This document shows, one piece after another, positions 2,574 to 63,689 of a stretch of 64,000 bases of DNA. The first letter of the stretch is position 1. Every line of letters begins with the position of its first letter. The DNA is from Candidatus Bipolaricaulota bacterium. GTDB lineage: Bacteria; Bipolaricaulota; Bipolaricaulia; UBA7950; UBA9294. The translations under genes and the position numbers were made by a program. The notes beneath the pieces were generated by a model. That model saw nothing but the letters and a program-made list of their open reading frames with translations, was not told where the DNA came from and searched no databases. The DNA is taken from contig JBFMGK010000015.1 of the NCBI GenBank assembly GCA_040752575.1, positions 15,823 to 79,822 on the forward strand. Direction: 5' to 3'.

Positions 2574-3074
2574 GTGGAGGTTGACGTGAAACTGGGCATC
2601 CTATCCGACTCCCACGACCGCCTGCCGGCTCTCGAGGCAATCGTCGAGCGATTCAACGCAGAGAACGTGGACCTCATCCTTCACGCCGGCGACTTCGTGT
2701 CGCCGTTCACGTCGATTCCGCTCTCGCGTCTCCGTGCGCCGCTCCTCGGCGTATTCGGAAACAACGACGGCGACCGCCTGTACCTCACCCAGCGCTTCGA
2801 GGGGATCGGAACCCTGCACTCTGGGTATCACGTCTTCGAGGTCGATGGGCTGCGCGCCGTGTTGATGCACGAGCCGAAGTCGATCGATGCCCTCGCGGCG
2901 AGCGGCCAGGTCGACCTCATCGTCTACGGCCACACCCACGAGGCCGTGCTGCGCCAGGGGCGCCCGGCAATCATCAACCCCGGCGAGGCGTCGGGGTGGC
3001 TCACCGGCCGCGCGACCGCCGCCCTGTTCGACACGCAGACGATGACGGGCGAGATCGTTCGCTTCTCCCTCTAG
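2574..3074 (+). CDS. YfcE/MJ0936-family metallophosphoesterase (phosphodiesterase)
   Basis: Motifs LGILSDSHD, LHAGDF, GNND and GHTH match the calcineurin-like phosphoesterase family. The true start may be the GTG at 2586 (VKLGILSD). Confidence 0.8.
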   Translation: MEVDVKLGILSDSHDRLPALEAIVERFNAENVDLILHAGDFVSPFTSIPLSRLRAPLLGVFGNNDGDRLYLTQRFEGIGTLHSGYHVFEVDGLRAVLMHEPKSIDALAASGQVDLIVYGHTHEAVLRQGRPAIINPGEASGWLTGRATAALFDTQTMTGEIVRFSL

Positions 3075-3094
3075 GCGCGCGGGCGCGTCGCAGT

Positions 3095-6000
3095 CTACTT
3101 CCGCTCGACAACGACGGTATCGATCACCAAGTCCCTGTTGAGGTCCGTGATCACGGCCAAGATCTTCGACTGGACAGCCCGGTAGTTGCCGATCAGGTAA
3201 TCGACCGAGTAGCGCAGATCGTCCTGCGCCCCGTCTCCGTCGAAGTCTCCGCCTTGCACATGGCGCGAGAGGATCGTAAGGCGCAGGTCGAGCAGCACGT
3301 TGTTGTCGAGATCGATGGCCACGGCGCGGGCCTGGCCGGTCGGCATACAGCACACGGTGAACGGCTCCAGCCACACGCGATCGTCGATGCACTCGTCGAA
3401 GTCGAGGTCGACCTGCGTGAACGCGACGGGGTGGCTCTCGGGATCGTACTCGTCGGTTCCGGCAGTGATCTCATCGGCGTTCGCGAAGCGGTCGCCATCA
3501 TCGTCCACCGGCTCGCCGGCGACCGGCGCGAGGAACGGCAGAAGCTCCGAGTTGCAGGGGTCTTCGTCGAGTCCGTCGATGAACCCGTCGGAGTCGGAGT
3601 CGCGGTTCGTCGGATCCAGAACAGGGACAAATCGGATCGAGAAGTCCACGGGATCCTCATCGAACGCCCCGTCGCCGTCGTTGTCCAATTCATCGAGCGG
3701 ATCCTCGTCGATCCATCCGTCCACGTCGTTGTCGAGCGTCGTGAAGGTCGTCTCGACGCAGACGTAGGCCACTTCGAAGCCGTCGAACAGCCAGTCGTTG
3801 TCCGTGTCGTGATCGAGCGGATTCGTCGGATTGAACGGGAAGGCGCTCGCCGGATTGGGCTGGTAGCGCTCGTCGTAGTCGGTCAGATCGTCGTCGTCGG
3901 TGTCGGCATCGCACGGGTTCGTCTCCTCGGGATCCGGCAACGTCGTCTCGACCGATGACGTGAAGATGTCGAAGTCGCTCGACAGGAAGTCGAAGTTCCC
4001 GTCGTGGTTCATCTCCTCGTAGCCGTCGGAGAGCCCATCCCCGTCGGTATCGGGATTGAGCGGATCGAGGCAGCCGCAAGCCGGGTAGACCACATGGATC
4101 GTCCGCCCGAACAGATCCGTGGCCGGGATCATGTACTGGCGCGACGTAGAGAAGCCGAGCTTCTCAATGCCGTCGCCTTCCGCGTCGCCGTCGGTGTCAT
4201 GCTGGTTCGGATCGGTCTCCCCCAGATCCCAGGTTCCGTTTCCGTTCTCGTCTTCGCCCAGGCCCATCGGATTCGGGTGGTCGCCGATCCCGCCCGCGCT
4301 CCCCGGCCTTGCCGAGACAGCGCACGGCGCGTTGCCCGGCACGCTGCACGCTTTGCAGAGCGGGTTCACCAGGACCGTGGGGTGCCCGCTGACCATGTAC
4401 GGAGTTCCCGCTCCGCCGTCGCACAGCCCATCGCCGTCGGTGTCGGCATTCACCGGATTCGTCGTGTTCGACCCGAAGACTTCGGCCGAGTCCAGCAATC
4501 CGTCGTCGTCGGTGTCCGGGTCGAACGGGTCGGTGGGGATCGGCCCTCCCCCCGTGACCTCGTGCCAGTCGCCGCGCCCGTCATCGTCGGTATCCCAATC
4601 CTGAGGGTCGGTCCCCAGCCCGACCTCCTCGCCGTCCGTGAGTCCATCGCCGTCGGAGTCCGGATCGCAGACGTTGCACAGGAGATCGTCATCCTGCTCC
4701 CCCGTCGCCGCCGTGACGATCGTGCGCACGGTGCCGGGCGCCCGAATGTCGGCAGCCGCTACATCCTCAAACCCTTCGAAGAAGATGTACGCATACGCGA
4801 GGCCCGGACCTTGCCGGGAGATGGGAATCACCGCGCCATCCTGGACGCCGTCGCCATCCGAGTCGTCGTCGTTGACATAGGGACACGTCGCATCGCGGGC
4901 CCCGCCAAGACCGCCGGCCAGGTTGGCTACGCCGGTTCCATGGTTCACGACATCGCCGCACTCGCCTTCGACGGGATCGAACAGGTGATCGTCGTCGGTG
5001 TTGATGTCGAGCGGATCGGACTCCTGGTCGAAGGTGCGCTGTGGCGTCGCGCCGGGCGTTCCGCCGGTCGCAATCAGCTCATCCGCATCGAACAGCGTAT
5101 CGTTGTCGCTATCAGCATCGAGTGGGTCCGTTCCGGTGACCATGACCTCTTCGTAGTCCGATAACCCGTCGTTGTCCGAATCCACATCGAGCGCAGGCAC
5201 TGTCTCTGCCATCGCTGGGCCGGAGGCGGGCGTGAAGGTGAACAACGGGCCGCCGCCATAGTCAGGCCCCACCGGAGTCACCGTGGATCGCCCCTCGGGA
5301 ATAACCGTACTGAATCCGGGAGCCACAGGCGGTCTTCCGCCGAGGGGTCCGCCGCCGATGAGGTTGGCCTCTTCACCGTCTCGGATCCCGTCGCCGTCGG
5401 TATCCGGATTGCAGGGATCGGTCTCCCAGTAGGCAACCGTCTTGCTCGATGGCGTGCCGAAGGATCCAATGACGATCCCGGCGCCGGCGTCGCCCCACGT
5501 CCCGTCATGGTTGGCGTCTTCTACGCCATCCTGTAAGCCGTCGTTATCGGAGTCATCGTCGTTAACGTAGGGGCACGTGTTGTCGGGTAAGCCTCCCAGA
5601 CCTCGCGACGTGCCCAAGCCCGATCCCGGGTATTCATTCTGATCCGGGATGTCGTCGTCATCGGTGTCCGGGTCGAGCGGATCCGAGACCTGAATGAACG
5701 AGCGGCTCGGCCACGCTCCCGAGATCGCCATCAACTCGTCCGCATCGCTCAGCGTGTCGTTGTCACTATCCTGATCGAGCGGATCCGTTCCTGTGACGAC
5801 GACTTCCTCGTAGTCGGACAACCCGTCGTTGTCGGCGTCATCGTCCAGGGGAGGCACCGTCCCCACGAGCGGGGCGCCGGCGGCCCCGAAGGTGGTCGAT
5901 ACGCCCTCGGCGATGACCGGCGTGAACCCGTTCGTCGCGCTGATGAGGAGCCCGCCAAGTAGGGCGACTTCCTCGCCGTCCGTCAGTCCATCGCCATCGG

Positions 6001-9000
6001 TGTCCGGATTGCAGAAATCGGTCTCCCCCGACGGGTTGATCTGGGCCTGCGACGTGGAGTCCCCGAGGATGCCGAGGGTGATCGTTCCATTGCCGTCCCA
6101 GCTCTCGGCGCCGTCCTGCAACCCGTCGTCGTCGGAATCGTCGTCGTTGACGTACGGACAAGCATGGTCGCCGTTGCCGCCGAGTCCTTGGGTGGTGCCG
6201 AGACCGGTCCCGGTGTACTCGATGTCGTCGCGCAGCCCGTCATCGTCCGTGTCCGGGTCAAGCGGATCGGATACCTGGGCGAACGTCCGCACCGGCCAGG
6301 CGCCGGAAAGGGCAAGCATTTCGTTCGAATCGGACAGCGAGTCGCCGTCCGAGTCCCAGTTCAGCGGATCGGTGCTGGTGACGACAACCTCTTCGTAGTC
6401 GGAGAGGCCGTCGTCGTCGGAGTCCGTATCGAGGGCGGGCAGGGTCGTAACGTTCCCCGTCGGCGTCGAGGCACTCACGGAACCATGTCCAAACAGCGCC
6501 TCCTCTTCGCCGTCCAGCAGACCGTCCGCATCGGAGTCTGCGCTGCAGAAGTCGGTCTCTCCGCTTCCCGTGGTCCCGGTGCCGCCCAACGTCTGCGTGA
6601 TGGCGCCATCACGGTCCGTGTCCTCGTGCCCATCCTGAAGGCCGTCGTCGTCCGAGTCCGCGTCGTTGACGAACGGGCACCCTGCGCTGATCTCCACGGC
6701 GTCGTTGAGTCCATCTCCGTCGGTGTCCTGCATGAGAGGATCCGCGTGGTCGCGTATCTCGGAGAGAGCCCATGTGCCGACTTCCGTCCCATCGGTCTCG
6801 GTATCGCAGTCCGTGTCAGCCACGCAGAAGCTCGTATTGTAGAGACCGGCCTCGTCTCCGTCCGACAGCCCATCGGCGTCGCTATCGGGGTTGTTCGGGT
6901 TGGGACGACGCGAGCCGCCGTAGTAACCGCCCGCTTCCTCGATCTCGTCCTGATCTCCGAGCCCGTCGCCATCGCTATCCCAGTTGTTGTAGTCCGTCCC
7001 GGTAACGTTCTCCTCGAGCACGTCGGGAAGCCCGTCGTCATCGAGATCGGTGTCCATCGATAGGATCGCGATGTCGAGAAGGATTCCCGCGCCGGCGACG
7101 ATCGCCTTGGCGATGTCGCTGTAGGGAATCGTTACACCCGTCTGGACGATTAGCCCGCCGGTGATGACACCATCAGGAATCACGTCGAGGACGAGAGCCG
7201 TCGTGTCGAGACCGAGCTTCACGGCCTGCAGCGCAACCTCCGACGCATTCAGGTCGAAGATCATCTGCGCAATGTCCTTCCCGCCCGAGCCGCAGCCGTC
7301 GTCGCAGTCCGCGCCCGTTGTTCCGTCGCCCGGATCGTCGGGGAACTGGTCGTACCTCTCGACGTTCACGGAGCCCGTCGACCCGAGGTGGACTCTGTCC
7401 GTGGGCTCATAGCGTACGGTGACGTTCACGAGCGGCGACGTTGTGGAAAAGCTGTCGGTGCAGGAAAGCATCGCGCCGGATAGCCCGGCGCAAGCGATCT
7501 CATCCGGCTCCAGCAGATGGATGTCCCCTTGAAGAACCGTGGCGACTCCTGCGTTGCCCGGATCTTCGCGCACGGTCGCCGTGTAGCTCACGCCCGTCGC
7601 CGTGCTGGTTCCCGTGACCTCTGTGATCGTTGGACGTCGCTGCAAGCCCTGGCCGAAGTAGCCTTCGCTGTTGGCGTGGATTCCGTCGGCCGCCGTGTAG
7701 TCGGCGTAGATGGTGTCGATTCCGGCATCGCCATCCAGTCCTGTGCAGGTGTAGACGAAGGCCCCCGACGGCGCAACGCCCAGCGCAGGGACCTGGGTGG
7801 CATCGCCGCCTAGGTACGAGGAATAGCTCAGCACACCGACGGGATTCGTTGCCGTCCCGACGCCGGCGACATCGGTCACCGTGACGGTATACGAGCAGCC
7901 TTCGCGAACGAGGATCGTCTCGCTGCAGCCGCTGACCGTCACTTCGGTCGGACGAAGGAGCACGTTCAGCACTTCCACGGTGGAACTCTCCGAGTAGATG
8001 TCCGAAGTCGAAGCGAACGTTGCCGTGAGCGTCGTCATCCCCGCTTCGAACGCCCCCGGAGTGTAGGTCACCGTGCAGCAACCGTTGGCATCGAGCGCCG
8101 GGGTAGCGTCGCTGAACACGCCCGTGCCGTCTGTGGTCAACGCAATGTCTTGGCCGCTCAGGGAACCCGGCACGCCAGCCGTCGTGTCGTCCTCGACGCA
8201 CACGCTGATCGTCACCGCCTGACCGATGTAGGCTGTCGCCGGCGACAGCAGCATGACGACATCCGCGGCACGTTTCTCGAGCGCCTGACTGAATGTGTCG
8301 CTGCTTGTAGCGTAGGCACTGTCGCCCGCGTAGCTGGCCGTGATCACGTGCGGCGTGGTCGCAGCGTCCGTCGGCGTGTACGTGAACTCGAACTGCCCAC
8401 CTTCCGCCGCCGTCAAGGTGTGCGTCGCTGGACTCAGCGTCCCGTTGCCGGTGTGGGAGAGGGTCACCGTACCCGTCGGCGCCGCGCCGAAGCTCGTCGG
8501 AACTCCCTCGACGACAACCGTTCCCGTCGCTGTCTCGTTCACAACCAGCGGGGTGTCGGACACGAAGACCGTCGTGACCGTCGGGCGCTTGGAGACCGTG
8601 TGCCCTTCGGTGTCGCTGGAGTCGATGTAGTCATCGCTGCCGGCGTAGGTGGCGGTGATGGTGTGCGTTCCTACAGGAAGCGCCTCGGTCGTGAGCACGG
8701 CTCGGCTCGTTGCCGTTCCCGTCGACACGAGGCCCGCCGTGCCCAAGATGGTTCCGGAGCCGTAGGTGAACGACACCGTTCCGCTTGGGCTACCGCTTCC
8801 GGGCGATGTCACGGTGACGTCGGCTGTCAGGGTGACGGTCTCACCAAGGACGGAGGGGTCGGGCGCAGTCGAAAGAACCAGCGTGGTGGCCGCCCGGTTG
8901 ACGACGTGCGTGCCGGTGCCGCTGGCCGAGCCGAACTCCGTCGGGTCGAGCGGCACGAACGCGGCCGTGAGCGTTTTCGTACCCGCCGTGTAGGTCGTCA

Positions 9001-49028: not shown

Positions 49029-49466
49029 GTGTCCACCGCCATGGTGAAGCGCCTCTCGGTGATCGACGTCGACCGCTGCGTGGGCTGTCAGCTCTGCGTC
49101 TTTGCCTGCGCGCGACGCGAGGGGCACGGCGGCACTGCCGGGGCGCGGATCGGCGTCCGCTCGGCGGGCGGAATGCGGCGGGGGTTCGTCGTCGTCGTGT
49201 GCCGGGCGTGCAGCGACCCGCCGTGCGCGCGCGATTGTCCCACCGGTGCGCTCGTTCCCCGCGACGGCGGCGGCGTCCGCTTCCAGAGCGACCTCTGCAC
49301 AAGTTGCGGCGCGTGCCGCGATGCCTGTCCGTTCGGCGCAGTCTTCTGGGACGAGACGACCGGCCGGCCGCTCGTCTGTGTCTATTGCGGCACGTGCGCC
49401 CGTTACTGCCCTCATGATGTTCTCGCGCTCGAGGAGATCGAGGGGAGGTCAGATGTCTCCGAGTGA
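49029..49466 (+). CDS. 4Fe-4S ferredoxin-domain protein (electron-transfer partner of AOR)
   Basis: Four CxxCxxC(xxx)CP-type clusters (CVGCQLCVFAC, CRACSDPPCARDCP, CTSCGACRDACP, CVYCGTCARYCP). Its stop overlaps the AOR start. Confidence 0.8.
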   Translation: MSTAMVKRLSVIDVDRCVGCQLCVFACARREGHGGTAGARIGVRSAGGMRRGFVVVVCRACSDPPCARDCPTGALVPRDGGGVRFQSDLCTSCGACRDACPFGAVFWDETTGRPLVCVYCGTCARYCPHDVLALEEIEGRSDVSE

Positions 49467-51228
49467 TCCGCTCGCCCGCGTCCTCGTCGTCGACCTGACA
49501 CGGCGTCGTTTCGAGATCGCCGAGCGCCGCGACCTGTTCGACGCTTCGCTCGGCGGCGTCGGCGTCGGCATCCGCCTTCTCGACGAGTTGTGCCCGCAGG
49601 GAGCCGACCCGCTCGGACCGGAGAATCCGATCGTCTTGTCGGTCGGCCCGCTCGTCGGGCTCTTCCCGCTCGCGTCGAAGACCGTCGCCACGTTCGCATC
49701 CCCCCACACGGGCAACCTTGGGGAAAGCCACGCCGGAGGGCGGAGCGCGGTCTCGATCCGCATGGCGGGGTACGGCGCGATCGTCCTTACGGGGGCGAGC
49801 GAGCAGCCGGTCTACGTCGTCGTCGAAGGCGATCGCGTCGCGTTCCGCGATGCGACAGCGCTATGGGGTCTGCGCTCGAGTGCGACCGTCGGCCGCGTCC
49901 TGCGCGAGCGCGAAGCTGGGTCGGGGCACCGCTCGATCTTGCGCATCGGCCCCGCCGGCGAGCGCCGCGTCTCCTACGCCTGCGTGATCACCGAGACCTA
50001 TCGGCACTTCGGCCGCCTCGGTCTGGGCGCCGTGTTCGGGAGCAAGAGGCTCAAGGCTCTGGTCATCGCCGGGCAGCGCTCGCTCCCAGTCGCCGATCCT
50101 GTTGCCTATCGCCGCGCGTACGACGCGATCTACCATGCGGCCACGGACTCGCCGATCATGAAGAAGTACCACGAACTCGGCACGCCGGTGAACGTCCTGC
50201 CGCTCAACGAGCTTGGCGCCCTACCAACGCGCAACCTTCGCGAAGGCCGATTCTCAGGCGCGGCCGCGCTGTCGGGCGAAGGGATGGCCGAGCGATTCCT
50301 CGGCCGCCGCCTGGCGTGCAGCCACTGCCCGGTCGCCTGCATCCACCTCGCCGCACTGCGAACGCCGCACCCGAAGGAGCCCTACTTCTACAAGACGACC
50401 ATGATCGGCTACGACTACGAGTTGATCTACGCGCTCGGCAGCCTGCTTGGGGTCGAGCGGCCGGAGGGCATGCTCGAACTCATCGACGAGGTCGAATCAC
50501 AGGGCCTCGACGCGATGTCCGCCGGCGTCGTCTTGGCCTGGGCGACCGAGGCTCGCGAGCGCGGTTTGATCTCCGACGCGGAGCTGGACGGCGTACCTAT
50601 CGCGTGGGGCGATGCGGCCGCCTACGGCGAAGCCGTAAGGCGGATCGTCGCGCAGCCCACCGGCCTGTACCGAGCGCTGGCGCGCGGCGTCGACGCGGCG
50701 GCCGCGGCGTACGGCGGCGCCGACTTCGCGCTCGCCTTCGGGGGCAACGAGATGCCGGGCTATCACACCGGCCCGGCGGGCTATCTGGGGTTTCTCGCCG
50801 GCGCGCGGCACAGCCACCTCGACAACGCCGGCTACGCGATCGATCAGAAGCGCCTCGCGGCCGGCGTCGCCGCGGTCGACGACGGCATCGTCGACGAAAT
50901 CGTGGCGGAAGAAGCCTGGCGCCAGGTTCTGGCGAGTCTCGTGGTGTGCTTCTTCGCGCGGGGCATCTACACGCCCGCCGCGGTGCGCGATGCGCTGGCC
51001 TGCGTCGGCGTCGAGGCCGACGAGGCACGTCTCCGCACGCTCGGCGCCGAGATCTTGGCTCAGAAGTGGGCGTTCAAGCGGCGCCGTGGGTTCGATCCAT
51101 CGGCTCTCGCTCTCCCCGAGAGGATCTTCGAGACCCCATCGCCCTCCGGCGCAATCAGTCGTGCCGGGCTCGAGCGGCTCGTCGCGCTGTTCGCGCGCCG
51201 CGTTCATGACACGACCCACGGCCGGTAG
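49453..51228 (+). CDS. aor: Aldehyde:ferredoxin oxidoreductase (tungsten/molybdopterin AOR family)
   Basis: A 591-aa frame inside the longer 49102..51228 ORF, with RBS GGGGAGGTCAG-ATG. The AFOR N-terminal (LLDE..P.G.DPLGPEN) and C-terminal domains carry the conserved Cys ligands (CSHCPVAC). Confidence 0.8.
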   Translation: MSPSDPLARVLVVDLTRRRFEIAERRDLFDASLGGVGVGIRLLDELCPQGADPLGPENPIVLSVGPLVGLFPLASKTVATFASPHTGNLGESHAGGRSAVSIRMAGYGAIVLTGASEQPVYVVVEGDRVAFRDATALWGLRSSATVGRVLREREAGSGHRSILRIGPAGERRVSYACVITETYRHFGRLGLGAVFGSKRLKALVIAGQRSLPVADPVAYRRAYDAIYHAATDSPIMKKYHELGTPVNVLPLNELGALPTRNLREGRFSGAAALSGEGMAERFLGRRLACSHCPVACIHLAALRTPHPKEPYFYKTTMIGYDYELIYALGSLLGVERPEGMLELIDEVESQGLDAMSAGVVLAWATEARERGLISDAELDGVPIAWGDAAAYGEAVRRIVAQPTGLYRALARGVDAAAAAYGGADFALAFGGNEMPGYHTGPAGYLGFLAGARHSHLDNAGYAIDQKRLAAGVAAVDDGIVDEIVAEEAWRQVLASLVVCFFARGIYTPAAVRDALACVGVEADEARLRTLGAEILAQKWAFKRRRGFDPSALALPERIFETPSPSGAISRAGLERLVALFARRVHDTTHGR

Positions 51229-51260
51229 CACGCCCCGTCTGGCAGCAGTATGATCTCACC

Positions 51261-51482
51261 ATGGTTGTCAAGAAGCCACGAACGGCACCGAAAGCGATCA
51301 TCAAGGCCAAGAAGGCTTCGGCAATGCAGATTCTGAGTTCATTTGGCGTCACTCAGCGTGACAAACGGGCCGCGCAGAAGGCACTTGACAGCGTTGTGGG
51401 CCACCACGAAGCCGCCTCTCGCGGCACGAAGGCCGCGCTCGCCGCGAGTCGCGCCCTTCCGACAAAGAAGACCACGAACTGA
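51261..51482 (+). CDS. Small lysine-rich hypothetical protein (73 aa) in the low-GC insert
   Basis: MVVKKPRTAPKAIIKAKKASA... It lies in a local ~52% GC region, against a ~69% background. No family recognised. Confidence 0.4.
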   Translation: MVVKKPRTAPKAIIKAKKASAMQILSSFGVTQRDKRAAQKALDSVVGHHEAASRGTKAALAASRALPTKKTTN

Positions 51483-51487
51483 ATCTG

Positions 51488-52084
51488 ATGAGTACCCACG
51501 CGCCGCAGGAGGGGAGTGTCTTCTTGAACATCCCCTATGATGCGAGCTATCAGCCCCTCTTCGTCTCTCTTGTCAGCACTCTCATACATCTAGGCCAGCA
51601 GCCCCATTGCGTGCTCGAGATACCAGAGACTGGGCAAGGCAGACTCCAACGGATCGCCAAGCTACTTGAGTCGTGCAGCCTATCGATTCACGACCTGAGT
51701 CGCCAGGGCGTGCCGACGCGGATGAACATGCCGTTCGAGCTGGGCCTTGCGTGGGCGATTCGACTGCGCGATCCCCAACACCAGGTCGTGCTGATGGACT
51801 CGCGACCGCACCGCCTTGATAAGGTCCTCAGCGATTTGAAGGGCCACGACGCCCTCATCCATAACGGCTCGTGCGATGTCCTGATCAACGAGATTCTCGG
51901 GATCACGCAGGACCCGATTCCCACGATCCGTGAGCTTCGCGAGGAGGCGCGTGTGCTCCGGCAGCTCGCGCGGAGCATTGCGGACTCACACGGTACGGGG
52001 ACGATCTTCAAGGCCGCGCCGTTCAGATCCCTCTTGGCCGCCGCGGTGCATCAAGCGGTGGAAAGCGGGCACATCAACCCGTAG
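51488..52084 (+). CDS. Hypothetical protein with a TIR-like (flavodoxin-like, STIR/TIR-type) fold signature, in the low-GC insert
   Basis: The order of motifs resembles TIR domains: N-terminal beta-strand VFLNIPYDASY (compare VFISYSxxD), a helix plus G..P....E, SLSIHDLS, and PFELGLAW (compare the WC.YEL/E box). Local GC is ~55%. The assignment is tentative because it is pattern-based without a profile search. Confidence 0.35.
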   Translation: MSTHAPQEGSVFLNIPYDASYQPLFVSLVSTLIHLGQQPHCVLEIPETGQGRLQRIAKLLESCSLSIHDLSRQGVPTRMNMPFELGLAWAIRLRDPQHQVVLMDSRPHRLDKVLSDLKGHDALIHNGSCDVLINEILGITQDPIPTIRELREEARVLRQLARSIADSHGTGTIFKAAPFRSLLAAAVHQAVESGHINP

Positions 52085-52404
52085 CTGCGGCTCGCTACCC
52101 CTTGTCCGAATGGGATGCGAACCGACGAGTCGCCGCGTCCGCCCCCATCCTGCGAGGATGACGTCTCGGTCGACTCGTCCGGGTCGCCGGCTGCCCGTGG
52201 CGGCCCTCTCTCCAAGCGCTTGTCCTACCAGGCTACAGCTGGGCGCGTCCACGCGAGGACGGCGCCGATCCGGTGCCGAAAACCACGAGGCAACCGCTCT
52301 CTGCAGCCGCCGAGGAAGACGCGAGAGAGGGCACAGGCCCCTTCATCTCGCCACGTCGACATCTTGGAGGGTCGCCCGCTGGCGGGGCATGCCGCGGGCC
52401 GTCG

Positions 52405-53274
52405 TCAGGGTTTCCGACGGAGAGAGCGCCCAAGCAGCGCTTCGACCGCGTCGCGAGTGGGCAGCGACGGCTGTGCGCCGGGCTGGGTTGTCGCGAGCGC
52501 TCCGGCGGCGTTCGCGAAATGAAGTGCCTGCCGCAAGGGCCACTCGCCGAGGGCCACGGCGAGCGCGGCGGTGAATGCGTCGCCAGCCGCGGTCGTATCC
52601 ACCACGCAGACGTCGAACGCTGCGACGTGCACCGTCTCGTCTCCATAGGCGGTGGCTCCTCGCGCCCCCTCTTTCAACACGACGAGGCCGACGCCACGTT
52701 CGAGGAGATGTCGCGCCGCGCGCTCTGGATCGGCAAGCCCCGTGAGCGCTTCGAGTTCGGTCTCGTTGGGCGTCAGGACGTCGACGCGTTCGAGCGGCAG
52801 GGCGAAGACGTCGCCCGCCGGCGCGGGATCGAGCACGACGAGCGGCCGACCGCGCGGCAATCGCTCCAAGAGCCGCGAGACGGCCGCGATCGGAATCTCG
52901 AATTGCACGAGCACGACGTCGGCCGCCGCGAGACGATCGAGGGTGCGTTCGACGTACGCGCCGTCGACCGCACCGTTCGCGCCCGCCACGCACGCGATGG
53001 CGTTCTCACCGGCCGCGTCGACCCAGATCGACGCCGTTCCCGTGGCAACGCCGTCTGCGCGCTCGACGCCCGCCACGTCGACGCCATCGGCGCGCAGCGC
53101 ATCCAGGAGCTCGTCCCCGAACCCGTCGGCCCCGACCTTGCCGAAGAACGCGACGGCAGCGTCCAACCGCGAAGCGGCCACGGCCTGGTTCGCGCCCTTG
53201 CCCCCCGGGTACTGGCACAGCTCGATCCCACGGACGGTCTCGCCCGGTCGCGGCATGCGGGCGACGCGCGTCAC
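52405..53274 (-). CDS. rbsK: Ribokinase (PfkB-family carbohydrate kinase)
   Basis: The N-terminal GGKGANQAVAA motif and C-terminal DTTAAGDAF (anion-hole/catalytic Asp) are typical of ribokinase. Confidence 0.75.
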   Translation of the reverse strand: MTRVARMPRPGETVRGIELCQYPGGKGANQAVAASRLDAAVAFFGKVGADGFGDELLDALRADGVDVAGVERADGVATGTASIWVDAAGENAIACVAGANGAVDGAYVERTLDRLAAADVVLVQFEIPIAAVSRLLERLPRGRPLVVLDPAPAGDVFALPLERVDVLTPNETELEALTGLADPERAARHLLERGVGLVVLKEGARGATAYGDETVHVAAFDVCVVDTTAAGDAFTAALAVALGEWPLRQALHFANAAGALATTQPGAQPSLPTRDAVEALLGRSLRRKP

Positions 53275-53351: not shown

Positions 53352-54293
53352 CTATGGAGTCCCGCCTTTCTTGGCCCGCTCCGCGCGGGGCGCCGGCAGA
53401 AGCTCGCGCAGCGCGATGCGTCGGCCGCCGCGCGCGACGGGGGCGAAAGGCGTCGACACGCCCACGATGTCTGCCGTCCGGGCGAACGCGTCAATCGAGA
53501 CGCGGAGCGCCTCGCGCAGCGCGTCCATCGAGATCGCCAGGAGAGTCATCTCGATCGCGGCAACCGCCTCCGGGGGGAGGCTCGTCGCCACGTGGCCCGA
53601 AAGCGAGGCGCAGTAAGCCTCGTGGGTGGTCGACGCTTCGCCCTTGTACGTCGCCCCGCCGCACTTCACGACGTTCGTCGCGCCGCCGGGCGCGTGGAGG
53701 ACTGCCGCGCCGGGCGCGAGGCGCAGCACATCGGCCGCCGCCTCGCTCGCGCCGGCCAGGCATGCGGCCTCGCTGCGTCCGAAGGCTACCAGCGCGCCGT
53801 CGACACCGGCCACGACGCGAGTCCGGCGCTCCAAGCGTTGATCGCTCACCGACAGAGGAAGACGGATCAGTTCGCGCTCGCCGCTGGTCTCTTTGATTTC
53901 GTGACCATCCCCCCAGCGCGCAAGGCGCGCGGCCAGGTCGACGACCCACTCAATCGGCGCCGCCCGACCCGCGTCGAACAGCGAACAGGTTAGCAGAAGC
54001 GGCGCAAGGTCCAGTCGATCCAGGAGGGCAACCTTGAACGCGTCGAGGCCGGACGCTGTCGGACCGCTGAACAATAGCGTCATGCCCGGGCGTCCGTCCG
54101 GAGTCGATGCCGCCGGCGCCGGGCTCTCGAGGCCACCGCGCAACGCACTGCCGGGAGCGAGCGCGACAGCGGCAAGGAAGCCTGCCGCGGCGAGTGCCAG
54201 AGCTTCGGTCGACGCCGTGAGCGTGAGCCGCGCGACATAGGTGTCGACGACCTCGCAGAACGTATCGTCAATCGACAATCCCTGATAGCGCAT
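53352..54293 (-). CDS. ftr: Formylmethanofuran:tetrahydromethanopterin N-formyltransferase homolog (Ftr/FhcD family)
   Basis: From memory, the N-terminal IDDTFCEV...ARL.LTAST (compare Ftr IEDTFAEAF...RVLVTAAT) and ASTPDGRPG (compare ETPDGRPG) blocks match Ftr. The 313-aa length fits. Confidence 0.6.
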   Translation of the reverse strand: MRYQGLSIDDTFCEVVDTYVARLTLTASTEALALAAAGFLAAVALAPGSALRGGLESPAPAASTPDGRPGMTLLFSGPTASGLDAFKVALLDRLDLAPLLLTCSLFDAGRAAPIEWVVDLAARLARWGDGHEIKETSGERELIRLPLSVSDQRLERRTRVVAGVDGALVAFGRSEAACLAGASEAAADVLRLAPGAAVLHAPGGATNVVKCGGATYKGEASTTHEAYCASLSGHVATSLPPEAVAAIEMTLLAISMDALREALRVSIDAFARTADIVGVSTPFAPVARGGRRIALRELLPAPRAERAKKGGTP

Positions 54294-54360: not shown

Positions 54361-55719
54361 TTACGGCGCGACGACCCTGTGCAGAGCGCCGGGCGCCGTG
54401 CCGTTGGGATCGGCCACCCATAGGAACTGCCCATCGTAGGCCAGGTCGGCCGGCTCCAGCCCCGGCGCCGCGGTTGTGTCGAGAACGACGCCCGTCCAGG
54501 GGTTCACTTTGGCCAGCACGGGCCCGGCGGTGACCCAGAGCGCGCCCCCGGCCCAAGCGAGTCCCGTCGGCGCCACGGCGACGATTCCGCGGGGGGCCAG
54601 GTCCGTCGGTCCGACGGCCGGCGCGGCGAACGATCCTTGGACGGCGCCGGTCATCGGGTCAACCCGAAACACGCGACCTCGGACGAGGTCGCTCACCCAG
54701 AGCGACCCTCCTCCAAAAGCGAGCCCGAACGGCGTGAACTCCTCGCTGTCGAGGACGCCCTGGACGTGATTCGGATCCGTCGTCGGGAGATCGGGATGGA
54801 GCTTGTAGATGCGCCCGTCCGATGCACAGGCGACCCAGAGGGATCCTTGCCCTAGGGCGAGTCCCGCCGGCACGCCGACGGGATTGGGCACGGGGATGAT
54901 GCTCTTGGCGTCGGCCGACGGGACGGCCGAACTGCCCGGCGCGTCGAACGACGAGAGCACGTACCCGTCCGCGGGGCGGACCTTGTAGATCCGGCGTGTG
55001 GATGCGTCGCTGATCCACAGCCACGCCCCGTCGTACGCAAGGCCGGTCGGATCCGGCCCCGGGGCGGAAAGCGTCGCCACGATGCCCTCGACAACGATCT
55101 GACGCCAGGCGCTGCCGACCGCTCCGTCGTCGTCGACGACGTGCAGCGTGGCGGTGCGGACGCCGGCGGAGGCGTAGACGTGAGCCACCGGCAGGCTGAG
55201 GTCCTGGCCGACGACGGGCGTCGAGCCGTCGCCGAAGTCCAGGCTGTACGACACAATGGTTCCCGACGGGACGGGGATCAGCGATGCGGGGTCCTGCGAC
55301 GCCGAGAGGTCAAAGATCACGGACAGCGGCGCAGAGCCGCGGACCGGCGTCACCGCGAACTCGGCGACGGGCGGCGGGTTCGTCGCGTAGAGGACGAGCG
55401 TCGCGCGATCGGAACGACCGTCGTTCGTGTAGACGGTCAGCGTCACGAGGTAGGCTCCGTGCTCGGTGTACGTGTGGGTCGGCGCGACGGCCGTGGACGT
55501 GTTGGCTTCGCCGCTTCCGGGATCGCCGAAGTCCCACGCCACCGCGTCGACGCGACCGGCCGACCCGGCGCTCGAGAAGCGAACGGTGAACGGGATCGGT
55601 CCCGTTTCGGCCCCAAGAATCGCGATACGCGCGTCGAGCGGCAGGAGCCGCGCGCAGCCGAACAAGAGACCCAAGCACCACCCCATCACGACCACAACGA
55701 CGGCAACTCGCGCCTTCAT
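54361..55719 (-). CDS. Secreted protein with two PKD domains and a C-terminal NHL/beta-propeller-like repeat region
   Basis: RBS GGAGG before MKARVAVVVVVMGW (signal). Two roughly 90-aa PKD-like units (FDFGDGS, DFGDGS), followed by repeated LAYDG.WLWISD / LAFGGGSLWVSD blades. Confidence 0.6.
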   Translation of the reverse strand: MKARVAVVVVVMGWCLGLLFGCARLLPLDARIAILGAETGPIPFTVRFSSAGSAGRVDAVAWDFGDPGSGEANTSTAVAPTHTYTEHGAYLVTLTVYTNDGRSDRATLVLYATNPPPVAEFAVTPVRGSAPLSVIFDLSASQDPASLIPVPSGTIVSYSLDFGDGSTPVVGQDLSLPVAHVYASAGVRTATLHVVDDDGAVGSAWRQIVVEGIVATLSAPGPDPTGLAYDGAWLWISDASTRRIYKVRPADGYVLSSFDAPGSSAVPSADAKSIIPVPNPVGVPAGLALGQGSLWVACASDGRIYKLHPDLPTTDPNHVQGVLDSEEFTPFGLAFGGGSLWVSDLVRGRVFRVDPMTGAVQGSFAAPAVGPTDLAPRGIVAVAPTGLAWAGGALWVTAGPVLAKVNPWTGVVLDTTAAPGLEPADLAYDGQFLWVADPNGTAPGALHRVVAP

Positions 55720-55787
55720 CTCACGACCTCCTCTCGGCGGCTCCCCGCCGGCAGTCAATGTACAACTGAAGTGCGCCTTGGGTCTCG

Positions 55788-56543
55788 TCACGAGGTCGCG
55801 CGACCGGTCTCGAGCCACGTCGCCCAGTCAGGAAACCCGTTGGCGCGGGCTTCGGCGGCCGCCGCGCGTGCGTCGTAGGCGACGGCGACGAGCTCGGTCG
55901 TCCAACCCTGGCTCGTCGGCCAGAGAACGGCGAAGCGCGCGTCGGGCGACGCGTTCTCGACCGCGTGGGGCTCGGGAACGTCGTCGACGTACGCCGGGCA
56001 GCCGACGCTTCCCGGGTTCACGACGAGAACTCCGCACGGCGTCTCGACAGCCGCCGGGGTGTGGTCGTGACCGCAAACGACGACGCGAGTCTCGACGCCG
56101 GCCAGCAGGGCGTCCACCTCGGCGCCGGGGCGAGGCGCGAGCCGGCCGTCGGCGACGCGGGACAAGAGATAGACCGTGTCGTCGTGCGGCGCCCCGTGGA
56201 AGAGCGTGATGCCGTCGAGCGACGCGCGTTGAGGCAGCGAGGCCAGCCACTGTACGTGAGCCGGCGCGAGGCGATCGCACGTGAACCGCGCCGTTCGCGA
56301 CGCCGGGCGGCCGGCGGCGGCCTCGACGAGGACTCGGTCTTCGTTGCCCGAGACGCTGACCACGGCGATCGACGGCAGGCGGTCGGCGACCGGCCGCGGA
56401 TCGAACGGACCGTACAGCGCGTCGCCGAGGTTGGCGATCGTCCGGATCCCGCGGCGCTCGATCTCCCGAAGGACGGCGTCGAGCGCGCGAGCGTTGCCGT
56501 GAACGTCCGCCAAGACGGCGATCGGAACGCGCGTCGCGCTCAT
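55788..56543 (-). CDS. Calcineurin-like metallophosphoesterase
   Basis: IAVLADVHGN, NLGDALYGP and VVCGHDH motifs. The 251-aa frame overlaps the aminotransferase stop by 4 nt. Confidence 0.7.
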   Translation of the reverse strand: MSATRVPIAVLADVHGNARALDAVLREIERRGIRTIANLGDALYGPFDPRPVADRLPSIAVVSVSGNEDRVLVEAAAGRPASRTARFTCDRLAPAHVQWLASLPQRASLDGITLFHGAPHDDTVYLLSRVADGRLAPRPGAEVDALLAGVETRVVVCGHDHTPAAVETPCGVLVVNPGSVGCPAYVDDVPEPHAVENASPDARFAVLWPTSQGWTTELVAVAYDARAAAAEARANGFPDWATWLETGRATS

Positions 56544-62368: not shown

Positions 62369-62620
62369 AGAGCGCAGAGATTATCCGCGGTCTTCCGAGC
62401 CGCGTCACCTACGAAGCACTGCCCGCGCCCTTGTGTGACTAGGATGCGGCGATCGAGCCGGCCTCGTGTAGCGTCGGGAGCAAGCCCTTGGCGTCGAGGC
62501 CAAGGGACTCTCCGACGTTCGGAATGAGCCTGGCTGCCGGGTGACGGCCCCATAGCCCAACGTCGCACACAGGGTGCGACGCTACAGGGGCCAGCGTCCT
62601 CGCCTCCGACCATGGACTAC

Positions 62621-63268
62621 GGACCCCGGACTGCGCACCGCGGACTGCGCACCGTCAACCCAACGAACTCCACGAACCCAATGAACTCAACAACCCGCTC
62701 GCCCGCGCCTGCGGACTATGGACTGCGCCGCCGCATCTCGCTTTCCAGCTCGGAAGAAGAAACCGACCCGCAGAGCAGGTCGGCTCGAGCCAATATAGTA
62801 ACCGCAATCATTAGACACCGTGGGCGGCACTCTGTCAAGTGTGATGGCGTCGGCCGGGATTCCCGCTCGCGAACCGCACCCCCCGGACCCCGGACCATGG
62901 ACCACGGACTGCGCACCGTCTCTTTGCAGGCGGCTAAGGCCGGAACGGATCAGCTCAGCAACCAACGTCGGAGACAAGCGCCGACGCTACGTGGGACAAG
63001 GAACTCTCGTCGATCCCCCGGACCCCGGACCGCGCACTGTGGACTGTGGACTGCGGACCGCGCACTACGCCGTTCGCAACCCAACGAACCCTACGAACCC
63101 AATGAACTCAACAAACCGCTCGCCCGCGCCCTCCGGACCCCGGACCATGGACCACGGACTGCGCACTGCGCACTGCGCACCGCGGACTGCGGACCCCGCC
63201 CCTCGCAACTCAACGAACCCAACGAACTCCACGAACCCAATGAACTCAACAAACCGCTCGCCCGCGCC
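62621..63268. repeat. Composite iteron-like direct repeats (three A+B units) in a 0.9-kb intergenic region
   Basis: Direct read. A 54-63-bp CA-rich B unit (caacccaacgaac[t/c]c[c/t]acgaacccaatgaactcaacaa[a/c]ccgctcgcccgcgcc) occurs at 62656-62709, 63077-63130 and 63206-63268. Each is preceded by a GGACTGCGCAC / GGACCATGGACC-rich A unit. Inside B there is a 9-bp sub-periodicity (aacgaactc / cacgaaccc / aatgaactc). An extra A copy lies at 62879-62918. Confidence 0.7.
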
Positions 63269-63283
63269 CCGCGGACTCCCCCC

Positions 63284-63312
63284 TTGACGCGATGTCTATC
63301 AAATGATACATT
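63284..63312 (+). promoter_or_regulatory. Near-consensus sigma70-type promoter (TTGACG, 17 nt spacer, TACATT) for the toxin-antitoxin operon
   Basis: Direct read: TTGACG 63284-63289, a 17-nt spacer, TACATT 63307-63312, immediately after the last B repeat. Confidence 0.45.
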
Positions 63313-63368
63313 CGGGCGTGCAAGAGCCTGGCGAAGACATCGAGCGAGCCTGGGTTGTCGCGTTCTTG

Positions 63369-63689
63369 ATGCGATTCAAGGCGTTGGCATCTGCGGATCG
63401 GATGGTCGTATTCCAAAGGAAGAACTACATCGAAACCCTAGGCGCGCTCGGCACACTGCCACACCAAGCGGAGGAGGTCATTCTGGGCCTCACGTTCGAG
63501 GACTACTACAGGGGTGCAGGAGCAGGCGAAAGAGATAGAGAGGAAGTCTGCGAGTTCGGAGCACGCGTGGCAGGGGAGGAAGTCTACATCAAGCCGATCA
63601 TCGATAGGGCGCACTCAAAGGCCATCTGCTGCTCGTTTCACATCGCCGAGAGGGAAATCGGCTACCCGTTTGCGCAAGACGGGTCGTAA
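63369..63689 (+). CDS. mqsR: MqsR-family toxin (mRNA interferase) of a type II toxin-antitoxin pair
   Basis: Recalled similarity to E. coli MqsR: EDYYRG (compare SDFYKS), EEVYIKPII (compare GQVYLKITVI) and KAICCSFHIAER (compare VLIVSFKEK). Local GC is ~57%. The ORF track starts it at 63303, but that ATG lies inside the promoter spacer, so I prefer the ATG at 63369 (107 aa, similar to the 98-aa MqsR). Confidence 0.55.
   Translation: MRFKALASADRMVVFQRKNYIETLGALGTLPHQAEEVILGLTFEDYYRGAGAGERDREEVCEFGARVAGEEVYIKPIIDRAHSKAICCSFHIAEREIGYPFAQDGS

Follow-up and report, generated by a model that had tools for sequence, protein, structure and literature searches.

A two-gene cassette in a Bipolaricaulota genome encodes a predicted TIR/NDT-fold enzyme of an undescribed family and a small, probably DNA-binding partner

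Introduction

TIR-fold enzymes are central to the immunity of bacteria, plants and animals, and toxins that deplete NAD+ or nucleotides recur in toxin–antitoxin and abortive-infection systems. We analysed a two-gene cassette within a stretch of 64,000 nucleotides (nt) from a Candidatus Bipolaricaulota bacterium (contig JBFMGK010000015.1; this whole stretch is called the window hereafter), which encodes a 73-amino-acid (aa) protein and a putative N-glycosidase effector of 198 aa, and several described systems come close to it. The bacterial TIR NADases, among them ThsB, the TIR–APAZ protein of SPARTA, TIR–SAVED, TIR–STING/Cap12, SpbK and AbTir, require a catalytic-type glutamate (PMC7282519). 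The NDT (nucleoside 2-deoxyribosyltransferase), DNPH1 (Rcl) and MilB–BcmB enzymes form a further superfamily for comparison, RES–Xre and MbcT–MbcA are modules with NAD+-degrading toxins, and YefM–YoeB is a toxin–antitoxin pair of a similar size to the cassette. Operons with DUF2188 and DUF3892 genes are reported to be associated with the CapH/CapP regulators and to have an earlier link to defence (bioRxiv 10.1101/2022.04.27.489752), and 33 canonical TIR genes adjoining DUF2188 genes were presented as a putative Thoeris type in a 2025 preprint (10.64898/2025.12.03.692087).

Here we report that the 198-aa protein belongs to a new family within the TIR/NDT superfamily, which occurs in a new minimal two-gene architecture and is widespread and entirely unannotated. 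We propose, as a tentative reading with slightly less than an even chance of being right, that the pair is an undescribed mobile toxin–antitoxin-like or abortive-infection module, the effector of which would cleave the N-glycosidic bond of NAD(P)+ or of a nucleotide. An earlier reading of the window from its letters alone (the sequence-only reading) had already taken the pair for an undescribed one, and this was borne out: Pfam gave no match, PADLOC gave no hit for the pair beyond noise, and a search of the accessible literature found no description of the enzyme family.

Results and discussion

The two genes form a conserved unit

The 73-aa open reading frame (ORF) lies at 51261–51482 on the forward strand and begins with MVVKKPRTAPKAIIKAKK. 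The 198-aa ORF follows co-directionally at 51488–52084, after a gap of 5 nt, and contains the motifs VFLNIPYD, SIHDLS and NMPFELGLAW. The two ORFs bear out the sequence-only reading, which had the insert coding for two proteins of 73 and 198 aa. In the NCBI annotation, the small protein (MEW5825741.1) and the large protein (MEW5825742.1) are each a 'hypothetical protein', and the latter is given as 157 aa with its start at the GTG of V42. The V42 start loses the invariant residues N14, P16, D18 and P39 of the first strand and helix (51488–51610), and the ATG at 51488 is therefore the better start. Even with a cut-off of E ≤ 10, the full 198-aa protein matched nothing in Pfam, NCBIfam or PHROGs; PADLOC gave two noise-level matches.

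Of the 75 species-level loci with enough flank, 71 have a co-directional member of the small-protein family as the immediate upstream neighbour of the enzyme gene. For the control positions, the corresponding counts were none of the 75 on the opposite strand and one of the 75 downstream. Across loci, the gap from the small-gene stop codon to the estimated enzyme-gene start had a median of ~0 nt. The reverse search agreed, as the small-protein profile gave 195 matches and all three of the loci looked up had an enzyme-family member immediately downstream (E values of 1e-49 to 1e-57). Natural fusions of the helix-turn-helix motif with the enzyme were also found (P0246, 279 aa; P0168, 245 aa). The co-occurrence of the two genes in other genomes, which had been put forward earlier as a check on the pair, was thus observed in both directions.

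A small, adjacent, co-directional, tightly spaced and conserved pair is the arrangement of type II toxin–antitoxin systems, and the cassette has all of these features. It is also organized like RES–Xre and MbcT–MbcA, with a small helix-turn-helix gene upstream and a predicted NAD+- or nucleotide-cleaving enzyme of ~200 aa downstream, and like them the family is mobile, patchy and located between housekeeping genes. However, the toxins of those systems have a RES/ART-like fold and the enzyme here a TIR/NDT-like one, and the present partner has a far smaller size and a basic tail that is non-specific. At one locus (L048, 5170–5937), a segment that appears SWIB/MDM2-like by eye (KKIWEYVRKHKLQDPKDKRTIRADEKLRLVFG) is found in the ORF that precedes the enzyme gene.

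The enzyme family is widespread and carries an invariant signature

A search of a word-indexed database returned 1,313 homologues of the 198-aa protein, ~195–205 aa in length and all unnamed, with E values down to 1e-96. Among 1.84 billion representatives, the family profile matched 2,804 clusters at 50% identity, including 1,784 at E ≤ 1e-10, and a motif scan of ~185,000 species genomes (one genome per species) found a relative in at least 584 species. The best 80 loci came mostly from Acidobacteriota (Thermoanaerobaculia and Terriglobia), with other hosts in Verrucomicrobiota, 'Deltaproteobacteria', Nitrospira, Nitrospinota, Anaerolineales, Melioribacter, Rokuibacteriota, Tectomicrobia, Binatus and Lysobacteraceae. 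The family spans at least a dozen phyla, and its distribution is patchy.

Fourteen residues (N14, P16, D18, P39, R52, H68, R78, N80, M81, P82, E84, L85, G86 and S115) were invariant in an alignment of 76 sequences that includes a subfamily only ~30% identical. Seven of these fall in the signature motif R78-x-N80-M81-P82-F83-E84-L85-G86, which is encoded at 51719–51745 on the forward strand, with the E84 codon (GAG) at 51737–51739. The glutamate of PFELG, which the sequence-only reading had picked out as a candidate catalytic residue, is therefore invariant. Some family members have C-terminal extensions (P0175, 280 aa; P0232, 372 aa; P0263, 295 aa); that of P0175 looks HicB-like by eye (IPGCIVYGNTRAQALAKVQALALRIIAERLE) and that of P0232 is a 180-aa region.

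These data bear on the view that the two ORFs arose by chance or are a decaying, functionless remnant. The public annotation might be taken to favour it, with both products called 'hypothetical protein' and the larger one given a shortened start. However, the 1,313 homologues, the 14 invariant residues, the confident model of the enzyme described below and the retention of the pair in 71 of the 75 loci refute it, and both genes of the window are intact and of full length. We give this view practically no credence.

The 198-aa protein is predicted to have a TIR/NDT-type fold

AlphaFold2, used with the family alignment, gave a confident model of the 198-aa protein (pLDDT 91.9, pTM 0.89). The model comprises a flavodoxin-like core at residues 7–125 and a family-specific C-terminal extension of three helices at residues 129–192. 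In order, its elements are strand 7–14, helix 19–34, strand 38–41, helix 52–61, strand 63–69, helix 80–94, strand 99–104, a short helix at 109–113, a short strand at 121–122, and helices 129–138, 147–167 and 176–192. A TIR-type fold is a flavodoxin-like three-layer alpha/beta arrangement around a five-stranded parallel sheet, and the model shows this arrangement.

The top Foldseek match was the TIR domain of the SPARTA TIR–APAZ protein (E = 7e-5), followed by plant TIRs, TIR–STING, NDTs, BcmB, DNPH1 and AbTir (TMt 0.73). In the structural search scores, NDTs were interleaved at 10.1 and 9.9, with MilB at 9.8, SARM1 at 9.4, YtoQ at 8.6, ThsB at 8.2 and LOG/SLOG proteins at ~8. Among predicted viral structures, the best matches were the TIR of Cap12/Pycsar and phage NDTs. 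Taken together, the model and the searches support a fold on the boundary between TIR and NDT. Because NDT and MilB-type N-glycosidases match the fold almost as well, NADase activity is just one of several possible chemistries.

In the predicted structure, E84 lies in the N-terminal region of helix 80–94, directly after strand 63–69, so that the glutamate singled out earlier is at the start of the helix behind strand 3. We predict from the model that E84 is the catalytic glutamate, as it appears to occupy the topological position of the glutamate of TIR NADases and of NDT, MilB and DNPH1. The glutamate at the equivalent place is the nucleophile of NDT and MilB, and the E-L-G-x-A context of E84 may echo the catalytic motif of NDT and DNPH1. 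Judged by where the predicted strands lie, the invariant polar residues N14, D18, R52, H68, R78, N80, E84 and S115 all appear to sit at the C-terminal edge of the parallel sheet, where folds of this kind usually have their ligand crevice.

The family resembles the TIR NADases in its first strand, where 'VF(L/I)N.P.D' recalls 'VFISxxxxD', and in its invariant glutamate, with which the helix behind strand 3 begins. It differs from them in lacking sequence-profile similarity to the TIR models of Pfam or to two TIR alignments, in its signatures R-x-N-M-P-F-E-L-G and L-S-D-x-x-G-x-D, and in its three-helix extension. Its partner is a mini helix-turn-helix protein and not SIR2/SLOG, Macro, Argonaute, SAVED or STING, and it usually lies outside defence islands. 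Similarly, the family appears to share with the NDT/DNPH1/MilB enzymes the topological position of the putative catalytic glutamate, but it has no Pfam match to PF05014 or PF15891, carries the extra C-terminal helical domain and resides in a two-gene mobile cassette with a putative DNA-binding partner.

The partner is a small basic protein of a helix-turn-helix-like family

The 73-aa protein has an isoelectric point (pI) of 11.55 and a net charge of ~+13. It consists of an extended N-terminus, a two-helix helix-turn-helix core at residues 21–46 (ASAMQILSSFGVTQRDKRAAQKAL) and a disordered tail rich in lysine, alanine and serine; the AlphaFold model has helices at 21–27 and 32–46 and a disordered tail. 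A single-sequence search with this protein found one near-identical protein only, and the family was recovered via a profile of the ORFs upstream of the enzyme gene in other genomes. These ORFs share the core K-[IV]-x-[LIT]-x-x-[PA]-[ST]-A-x-E-[IT]-A-x-x-L-G-[VI]-S-x-x-[RK], and a hidden Markov model (HMM) of the core scored the 73-aa ORF of the window at E = 1.3e-10. Members of the partner family are 50–100 aa long and highly basic, and some gave weak matches to helix-turn-helix models of Pfam, namely Sigma70_r4 (7 of 41 members, best 5.8e-5), Sigma70_r3, HTH_17, MerR and Rv2175c_wHTH. Thus the earlier statement that the 73-aa protein has no recognisable domain stands for Pfam, where it has no match (as in NCBIfam and PHROGs), but misses its membership of a conserved helix-turn-helix-like family. 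Judged from the shared core and the model, it is probably a minimal helix-turn-helix protein and is predicted to bind DNA. A ribbon-helix-helix is conceivable from the strand–helix–G-x-S–helix pattern, but the Pfam signals of the family favour the helix-turn-helix.

The basic nature of the partner could also point to a DNA-directed module, in which the partner would tether the enzyme to DNA or RNA for base excision, modification or a cleavage like that of 2′,3′-cNMP (cyclic nucleoside monophosphate) synthetases. The partner has a pI of 11.3–11.6 and a non-specific basic tail, the enzyme family is itself basic (median pI 9.1), fusions of the two proteins exist, and on a Sphingomonas plasmid the cassette lies beside an HU gene. 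However, neither a motif nor a fold match pointed to a nuclease or glycosylase, the enzyme of the window is slightly acidic (pI 6.6), and the proposal is wholly speculative. We consider it quite improbable.

The cassette occupies a polymorphic junction and is mobile

The cassette is inserted at the 3′ end of an aldehyde:ferredoxin oxidoreductase (AOR) gene. We retrieved 80 metagenomic loci encoding AOR relatives and compared the three closest (77% identity; L106, L107 and L108), all of which share the GNAT–ferredoxin–AOR synteny and a PKD-domain gene with the window. In L108 the junction is empty, with 26 nt between the convergent stop codons of the AOR and PKD-domain genes (6181–6207). In L107 it holds yefM–yoeB at 3046–3700 on the reverse strand (YoeB_toxin, 38 bits). 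The L106 junction carries the cassette, with genes for 76 aa and 198 aa, followed by an orphan yefM at 3472–3711 on the reverse strand, yoeB being missing. The L106 enzyme is 64% identical to that of the window, and the GC (guanine-plus-cytosine) content of the L106 cassette is 59.3% compared with ~67%. The junction is therefore polymorphic for the presence of the cassette and hosts a genuine type II toxin–antitoxin pair in a relative, and the empty site in L108 together with the yefM–yoeB of L107 upholds the claim of the sequence-only reading that the insert is acquired DNA.

The YefM–YoeB pair is like the cassette in using the same AOR 3′ junction in a sister genome, in its similar size, in a GC content also below that of its surroundings and in its orphan yefM next to the L106 cassette. 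Its proteins are unrelated to those of the cassette and its genes lie on the opposite strand. A YefM/YoeB remnant in the window was considered and rejected, as none is present in the 320-nt spacer downstream of the cassette. In related genomes that are Bipolaricaulota-like, the AOR 3′ junction is a hotspot of small modules.

The exact GC content of 51229–52090 is 60.9% (59.9% for the 73-aa gene and 61.1% for the 198-aa gene), compared with 67.1% for the window as a whole, 70.3% for the AOR gene and 71.6% for the PfkB-family gene on the other side. Only 0.25% of the 862-nt windows across the 64 kb are equally low (z = −2.25). The GC content at third codon positions is 69% in the 73-aa gene and 77% in the 198-aa gene vs 81–86% in the neighbours. 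The dip noted previously is therefore real and amounts to ~10 points, not 12–17; the 52–57% given for it was too low and fits just the local minimum, as the lowest 200-nt window has 56.5% GC.

Elsewhere, the family was carried by 16 plasmids of Sphingomonas, Bradyrhizobium, Rhizobium, Sinorhizobium, Microvirga and Sphingobium, always as a 'hypothetical protein' or unannotated. On the Sphingomonas aliaeris plasmid NZ_CP061036.1 (L104, 1–5609), Mu-transposase-like TniA, TniB and TniQ genes immediately precede the cassette, which is accompanied by the HU gene mentioned above and a serine protease gene and looks like cargo of a Tn5053/Tn7-like transposon. Seven IMG/VR (predicted viral) contigs also carry the family, and no homologue was found in GenBank phages. 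Some genomes have two copies, and ~6 of 80 loci are frameshifted or truncated. Mobility, patchiness, variable sites and decay are all typical of type II toxin–antitoxin systems and are all seen in the cassette family. Among the decayed copies, L028 has an extra truncated fragment (5431–5736) upstream of an intact cassette, the enzyme genes of L037 (5983–6703), L070 (3659–4279) and L023 (5974–6837) are frameshifted or interrupted, and L057 has a second small gene with an enzyme fragment (1190–1580).

The flanks of the cassette leave room for a role outside conflict, in which the enzyme would be a salvage or house-cleaning N-glycosidase or transferase like NDT, DNPH1, MilB or LOG, accompanied by its own small regulator. 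The possible likeness of the E-L-G-x-A context to the NDT/DNPH1 motif would fit such a role. The 146 nearest flanking ORFs of the 75 loci are a heterogeneous set of mostly housekeeping genes (ABC transporters, metallo-beta-lactamase fold proteins, aconitase and PurM among others), so that the neighbours are mostly metabolic; in addition, some lineages keep the position. In one operon for lysine biosynthesis, dapA and a dapD-like gene flank a 61%-identical member (L105, 5679–6588) on the same strand; in that locus the small upstream gene is uncalled in the source annotation, which leaves a 320-nt gap. Against such a role, the family is found in at least 584 of the ~185,000 species genomes, a patchy distribution, and occurs on plasmids, a transposon and IMG/VR contigs, in two copies in some genomes and as pseudogenes. 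The junction is polymorphic and elsewhere holds YefM–YoeB, the GC content of the cassette is below that of the host, and the neighbours differ from locus to locus, which argues against a conserved metabolic operon. Thus we think a purely metabolic function unlikely.

A divergent subfamily is linked to DUF2188 and a Thoeris-rich island

In a divergent subfamily from IMG/VR contigs (L096–L101), the upstream partner is a DUF2188 protein that scores above the Pfam threshold. In L093 the partner is a helix-turn-helix–DUF2188 fusion, and the neighbourhood holds DUF2188, DUF3892 and HTH_3 genes and an integrase. One contig, IMG/VR UViG 2524614854_000003 (L097, 1–8400), is a Thoeris-rich island with the family member at 5992–6627. 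Its gene order is KAP NTPase, SNase, DUF4062, ThsA_Macro, ThsB_TIR, TIR_2, the pair of DUF2188 and family member, ThsA_Macro and TIR_2. By context, this island ties the family to TIR-based immunity. The likeness to TIR NADases further includes the accessory and mobile nature of the genes, this island, and the DUF2188 partner of the divergent subfamily, which some canonical TIRs have as well. The upstream DUF2188 partner, the L093 fusion and the L097 island likewise connect the family with the DUF2188/DUF3892 operons and the 'TIR + DUF2188' Thoeris type. However, the partner in the window has no DUF2188, and the TIRs of the preprint are canonical TIR_2 proteins and not members of this enzyme family. 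In the papers examined on DUF2188 systems, the ~200-aa protein is termed a 'hypothetical protein' or is unmentioned, and 'TIR + DUF2188' loci may in fact have this unannotated gene as their effector.

We therefore weighed a signalling, Thoeris-like module, in which the TIR-like protein would make a nucleotide signal for its partner or the pair would sense the signal of a ThsB encoded elsewhere. The placement of the L097 pair between ThsA_Macro, ThsB_TIR and TIR_2 genes favours it, as do the 33 canonical TIR genes beside DUF2188 (10.64898/2025.12.03.692087). Yet a canonical TIR was nearby in only one of ~105 family loci, that of L097, and none was seen near the cassette of the window or at the 75 species loci; all of these counts were made with two narrow TIR HMMs. 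In Thoeris, ThsB is paired with an effector that has a signal-sensing domain (SLOG, Macro and others) and a killing domain, whereas the sole partner in the window is the 73-aa helix-turn-helix protein, which has no ligand-binding or killing domain, and PADLOC found no Thoeris there. The family also lacks the enrichment beside defence genes that Thoeris shows, and its flanks are not enriched as defence islands. A signalling role thus appears to have a low probability.

A tentative mechanism and the evidence against it

In the toxin–antitoxin-like or abortive-infection module that we propose, the 198-aa enzyme would cleave the N-glycosidic bond of NAD(P)+ or a nucleotide, and when unrestrained it would deplete an essential metabolite and cause growth arrest or abortive infection; alternatively, its output might be a nucleotide-derived signal. 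The small partner may bind DNA, probably the operon's own promoter, and may restrain or gate the enzyme in the manner of a type II antitoxin/repressor. In the divergent subfamily, the DUF2188 domain, or both modules together, would take the partner role. A broader form of this proposal is that the cassette is a founding example of a family of minimal two-gene conflict systems, in which an unrecognised branch of the TIR/NDT enzymes provides an N-glycosidase effector and a mini DNA-binding partner, with a helix-turn-helix and/or DUF2188, acts as its gate. We regard this broader form as possible but, on balance, doubtful.

Several observations weigh against a module of this kind. The model of the small protein is of low confidence (pLDDT 67), fusions of a helix-turn-helix to the enzyme are unusual for classical type II toxin–antitoxin systems, and the Lys/Arg/Ser/Ala-rich tail of the partner is poorly conserved. 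Such a tail is unlike a toxin-binding antitoxin segment, which is specific, and would be more like one for non-specific nucleic-acid binding. No enrichment of defence islands was detected among the 146 nearest flanking ORFs, where a few methyltransferase, AbiU and AriA matches were seen with crude gene calling. In some lineages the position is kept across species, for example beside aconitase, PurM or LivF homologues, and this conserved location fits stable retention and not only a selfish mobile element.

Profile searches also gave no support for a relationship in sequence to TIR or NDT families. A Pfam scan of 66 aligned members at E ≤ 10 returned no match to TIR, PF05014, PF15891 or another relevant family, and the family profile searched against PDB sequences with hmmsearch gave noise only (best E = 0.14). 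The hhalign comparison with two TIR alignments, of TIR_2 type and ThsB type and built from sequences printed in the preprint supplement, gave a probability below 1%, but the test is weak because its positive control, TIR_2-type vs ThsB-type, reached only 44%. Of the TIR-like resemblance asserted in the sequence-only reading, the fold thus holds (Foldseek and AlphaFold) and membership of TIR by sequence does not; put to the two kinds of search that it had itself suggested, the structure search found a TIR/flavodoxin-like fold and the profile searches recovered no TIR family. As the sequence test for a Pfam TIR domain fails, the protein is filed as a new family of TIR/NDT fold and not as a TIR domain protein.

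Flanking genes and other features of the window

The AOR gene upstream of the cassette (49453–51228, forward strand) matches Pfam AFOR_N and AFOR_C and is preceded by a 4Fe-4S ferredoxin gene. Downstream, a PfkB-family sugar kinase gene, previously called rbsK, lies at 52405–53274 on the reverse strand (Pfam PfkB, E = 9e-58), followed by an FTR-like gene at 53352–54293 on the same strand, which matches FTR and FTR_C with modest scores of 66 and 47 bits; the PKD-domain gene is at 54361–55818. All of these genes are outside the cassette. The Pfam matches confirm that the junction is a convergent one between AOR on the forward strand and the ribokinase and Ftr genes on the reverse strand. They also confirm, together with the ORFs of the window, that no described partner gene (SIR2/SLOG, cyclase or Argonaute) adjoins the cassette; no ThsA-like gene is nearby. 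The FTR-like gene is related to formylmethanofuran:tetrahydromethanopterin formyltransferase, and its pairing with the adjoining PfkB kinase gene, here in a Bipolaricaulota genome, is unusual.

A spacer of 32 nt (51229–51260) separates the AOR stop codon from the cassette and contains, within 51236–51260, TATGAT, with its end 7 nt ahead of the small-gene ATG. The counterpart spacer of L106 (2575–2595) carries TATAGAAT, likewise a −10-like box that ends 6–7 nt ahead of the ATG. This spacing suggests that TATGAT is a possible −10 box and that the transcript of the small gene may be leaderless or have a very short leader. A consensus promoter scan around the cassette did not find a full sigma-70 site, and a scan for flanking direct or inverted repeats, att-like sites and a terminator around the cassette gave nothing convincing.

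Elsewhere in the window, the region with the lowest GC content (~60%) is at 62600–63280 and is a complex direct-repeat array, with units of 59–64 nt and runs of GGACYSC-like motifs at 7- or 14-nt spacing. An ORF spanning the array would give a low-complexity protein rich in PNEL and NSTN. The adjoining 128-aa ORF (63303–63689, forward strand) is without a Pfam match and looks vaguely like a small toxin by eye, a likeness that nothing supports.

Significance

The family is invisible to Pfam, NCBIfam, PHROGs and PADLOC and its gene is mis-started in the NCBI annotation, and it has therefore been missed by current censuses of defence and toxin–antitoxin systems. The minimal architecture, of ~200 aa plus ~70 aa, makes it easy to test, and cultured Sphingomonas, Bradyrhizobium, Rhizobium and Microvirga carry homologues on their plasmids. 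Even if the protein were a nucleotide-salvage enzyme instead, it would still be a new branch of the NDT/TIR superfamily. If the broader form of our proposal is true, TIR-fold enzymes would have a dedicated partner in DUF2188, a domain already seen in the vicinity of canonical TIRs and in operons under CapH/CapP regulation, and the Thoeris-like 'TIR + DUF2188' loci would find their missing effector in the unannotated ~200-aa gene. The connection with DUF2188 and with a Thoeris island yields a concrete hypothesis on two parts of conflict systems that are so far unexplained.

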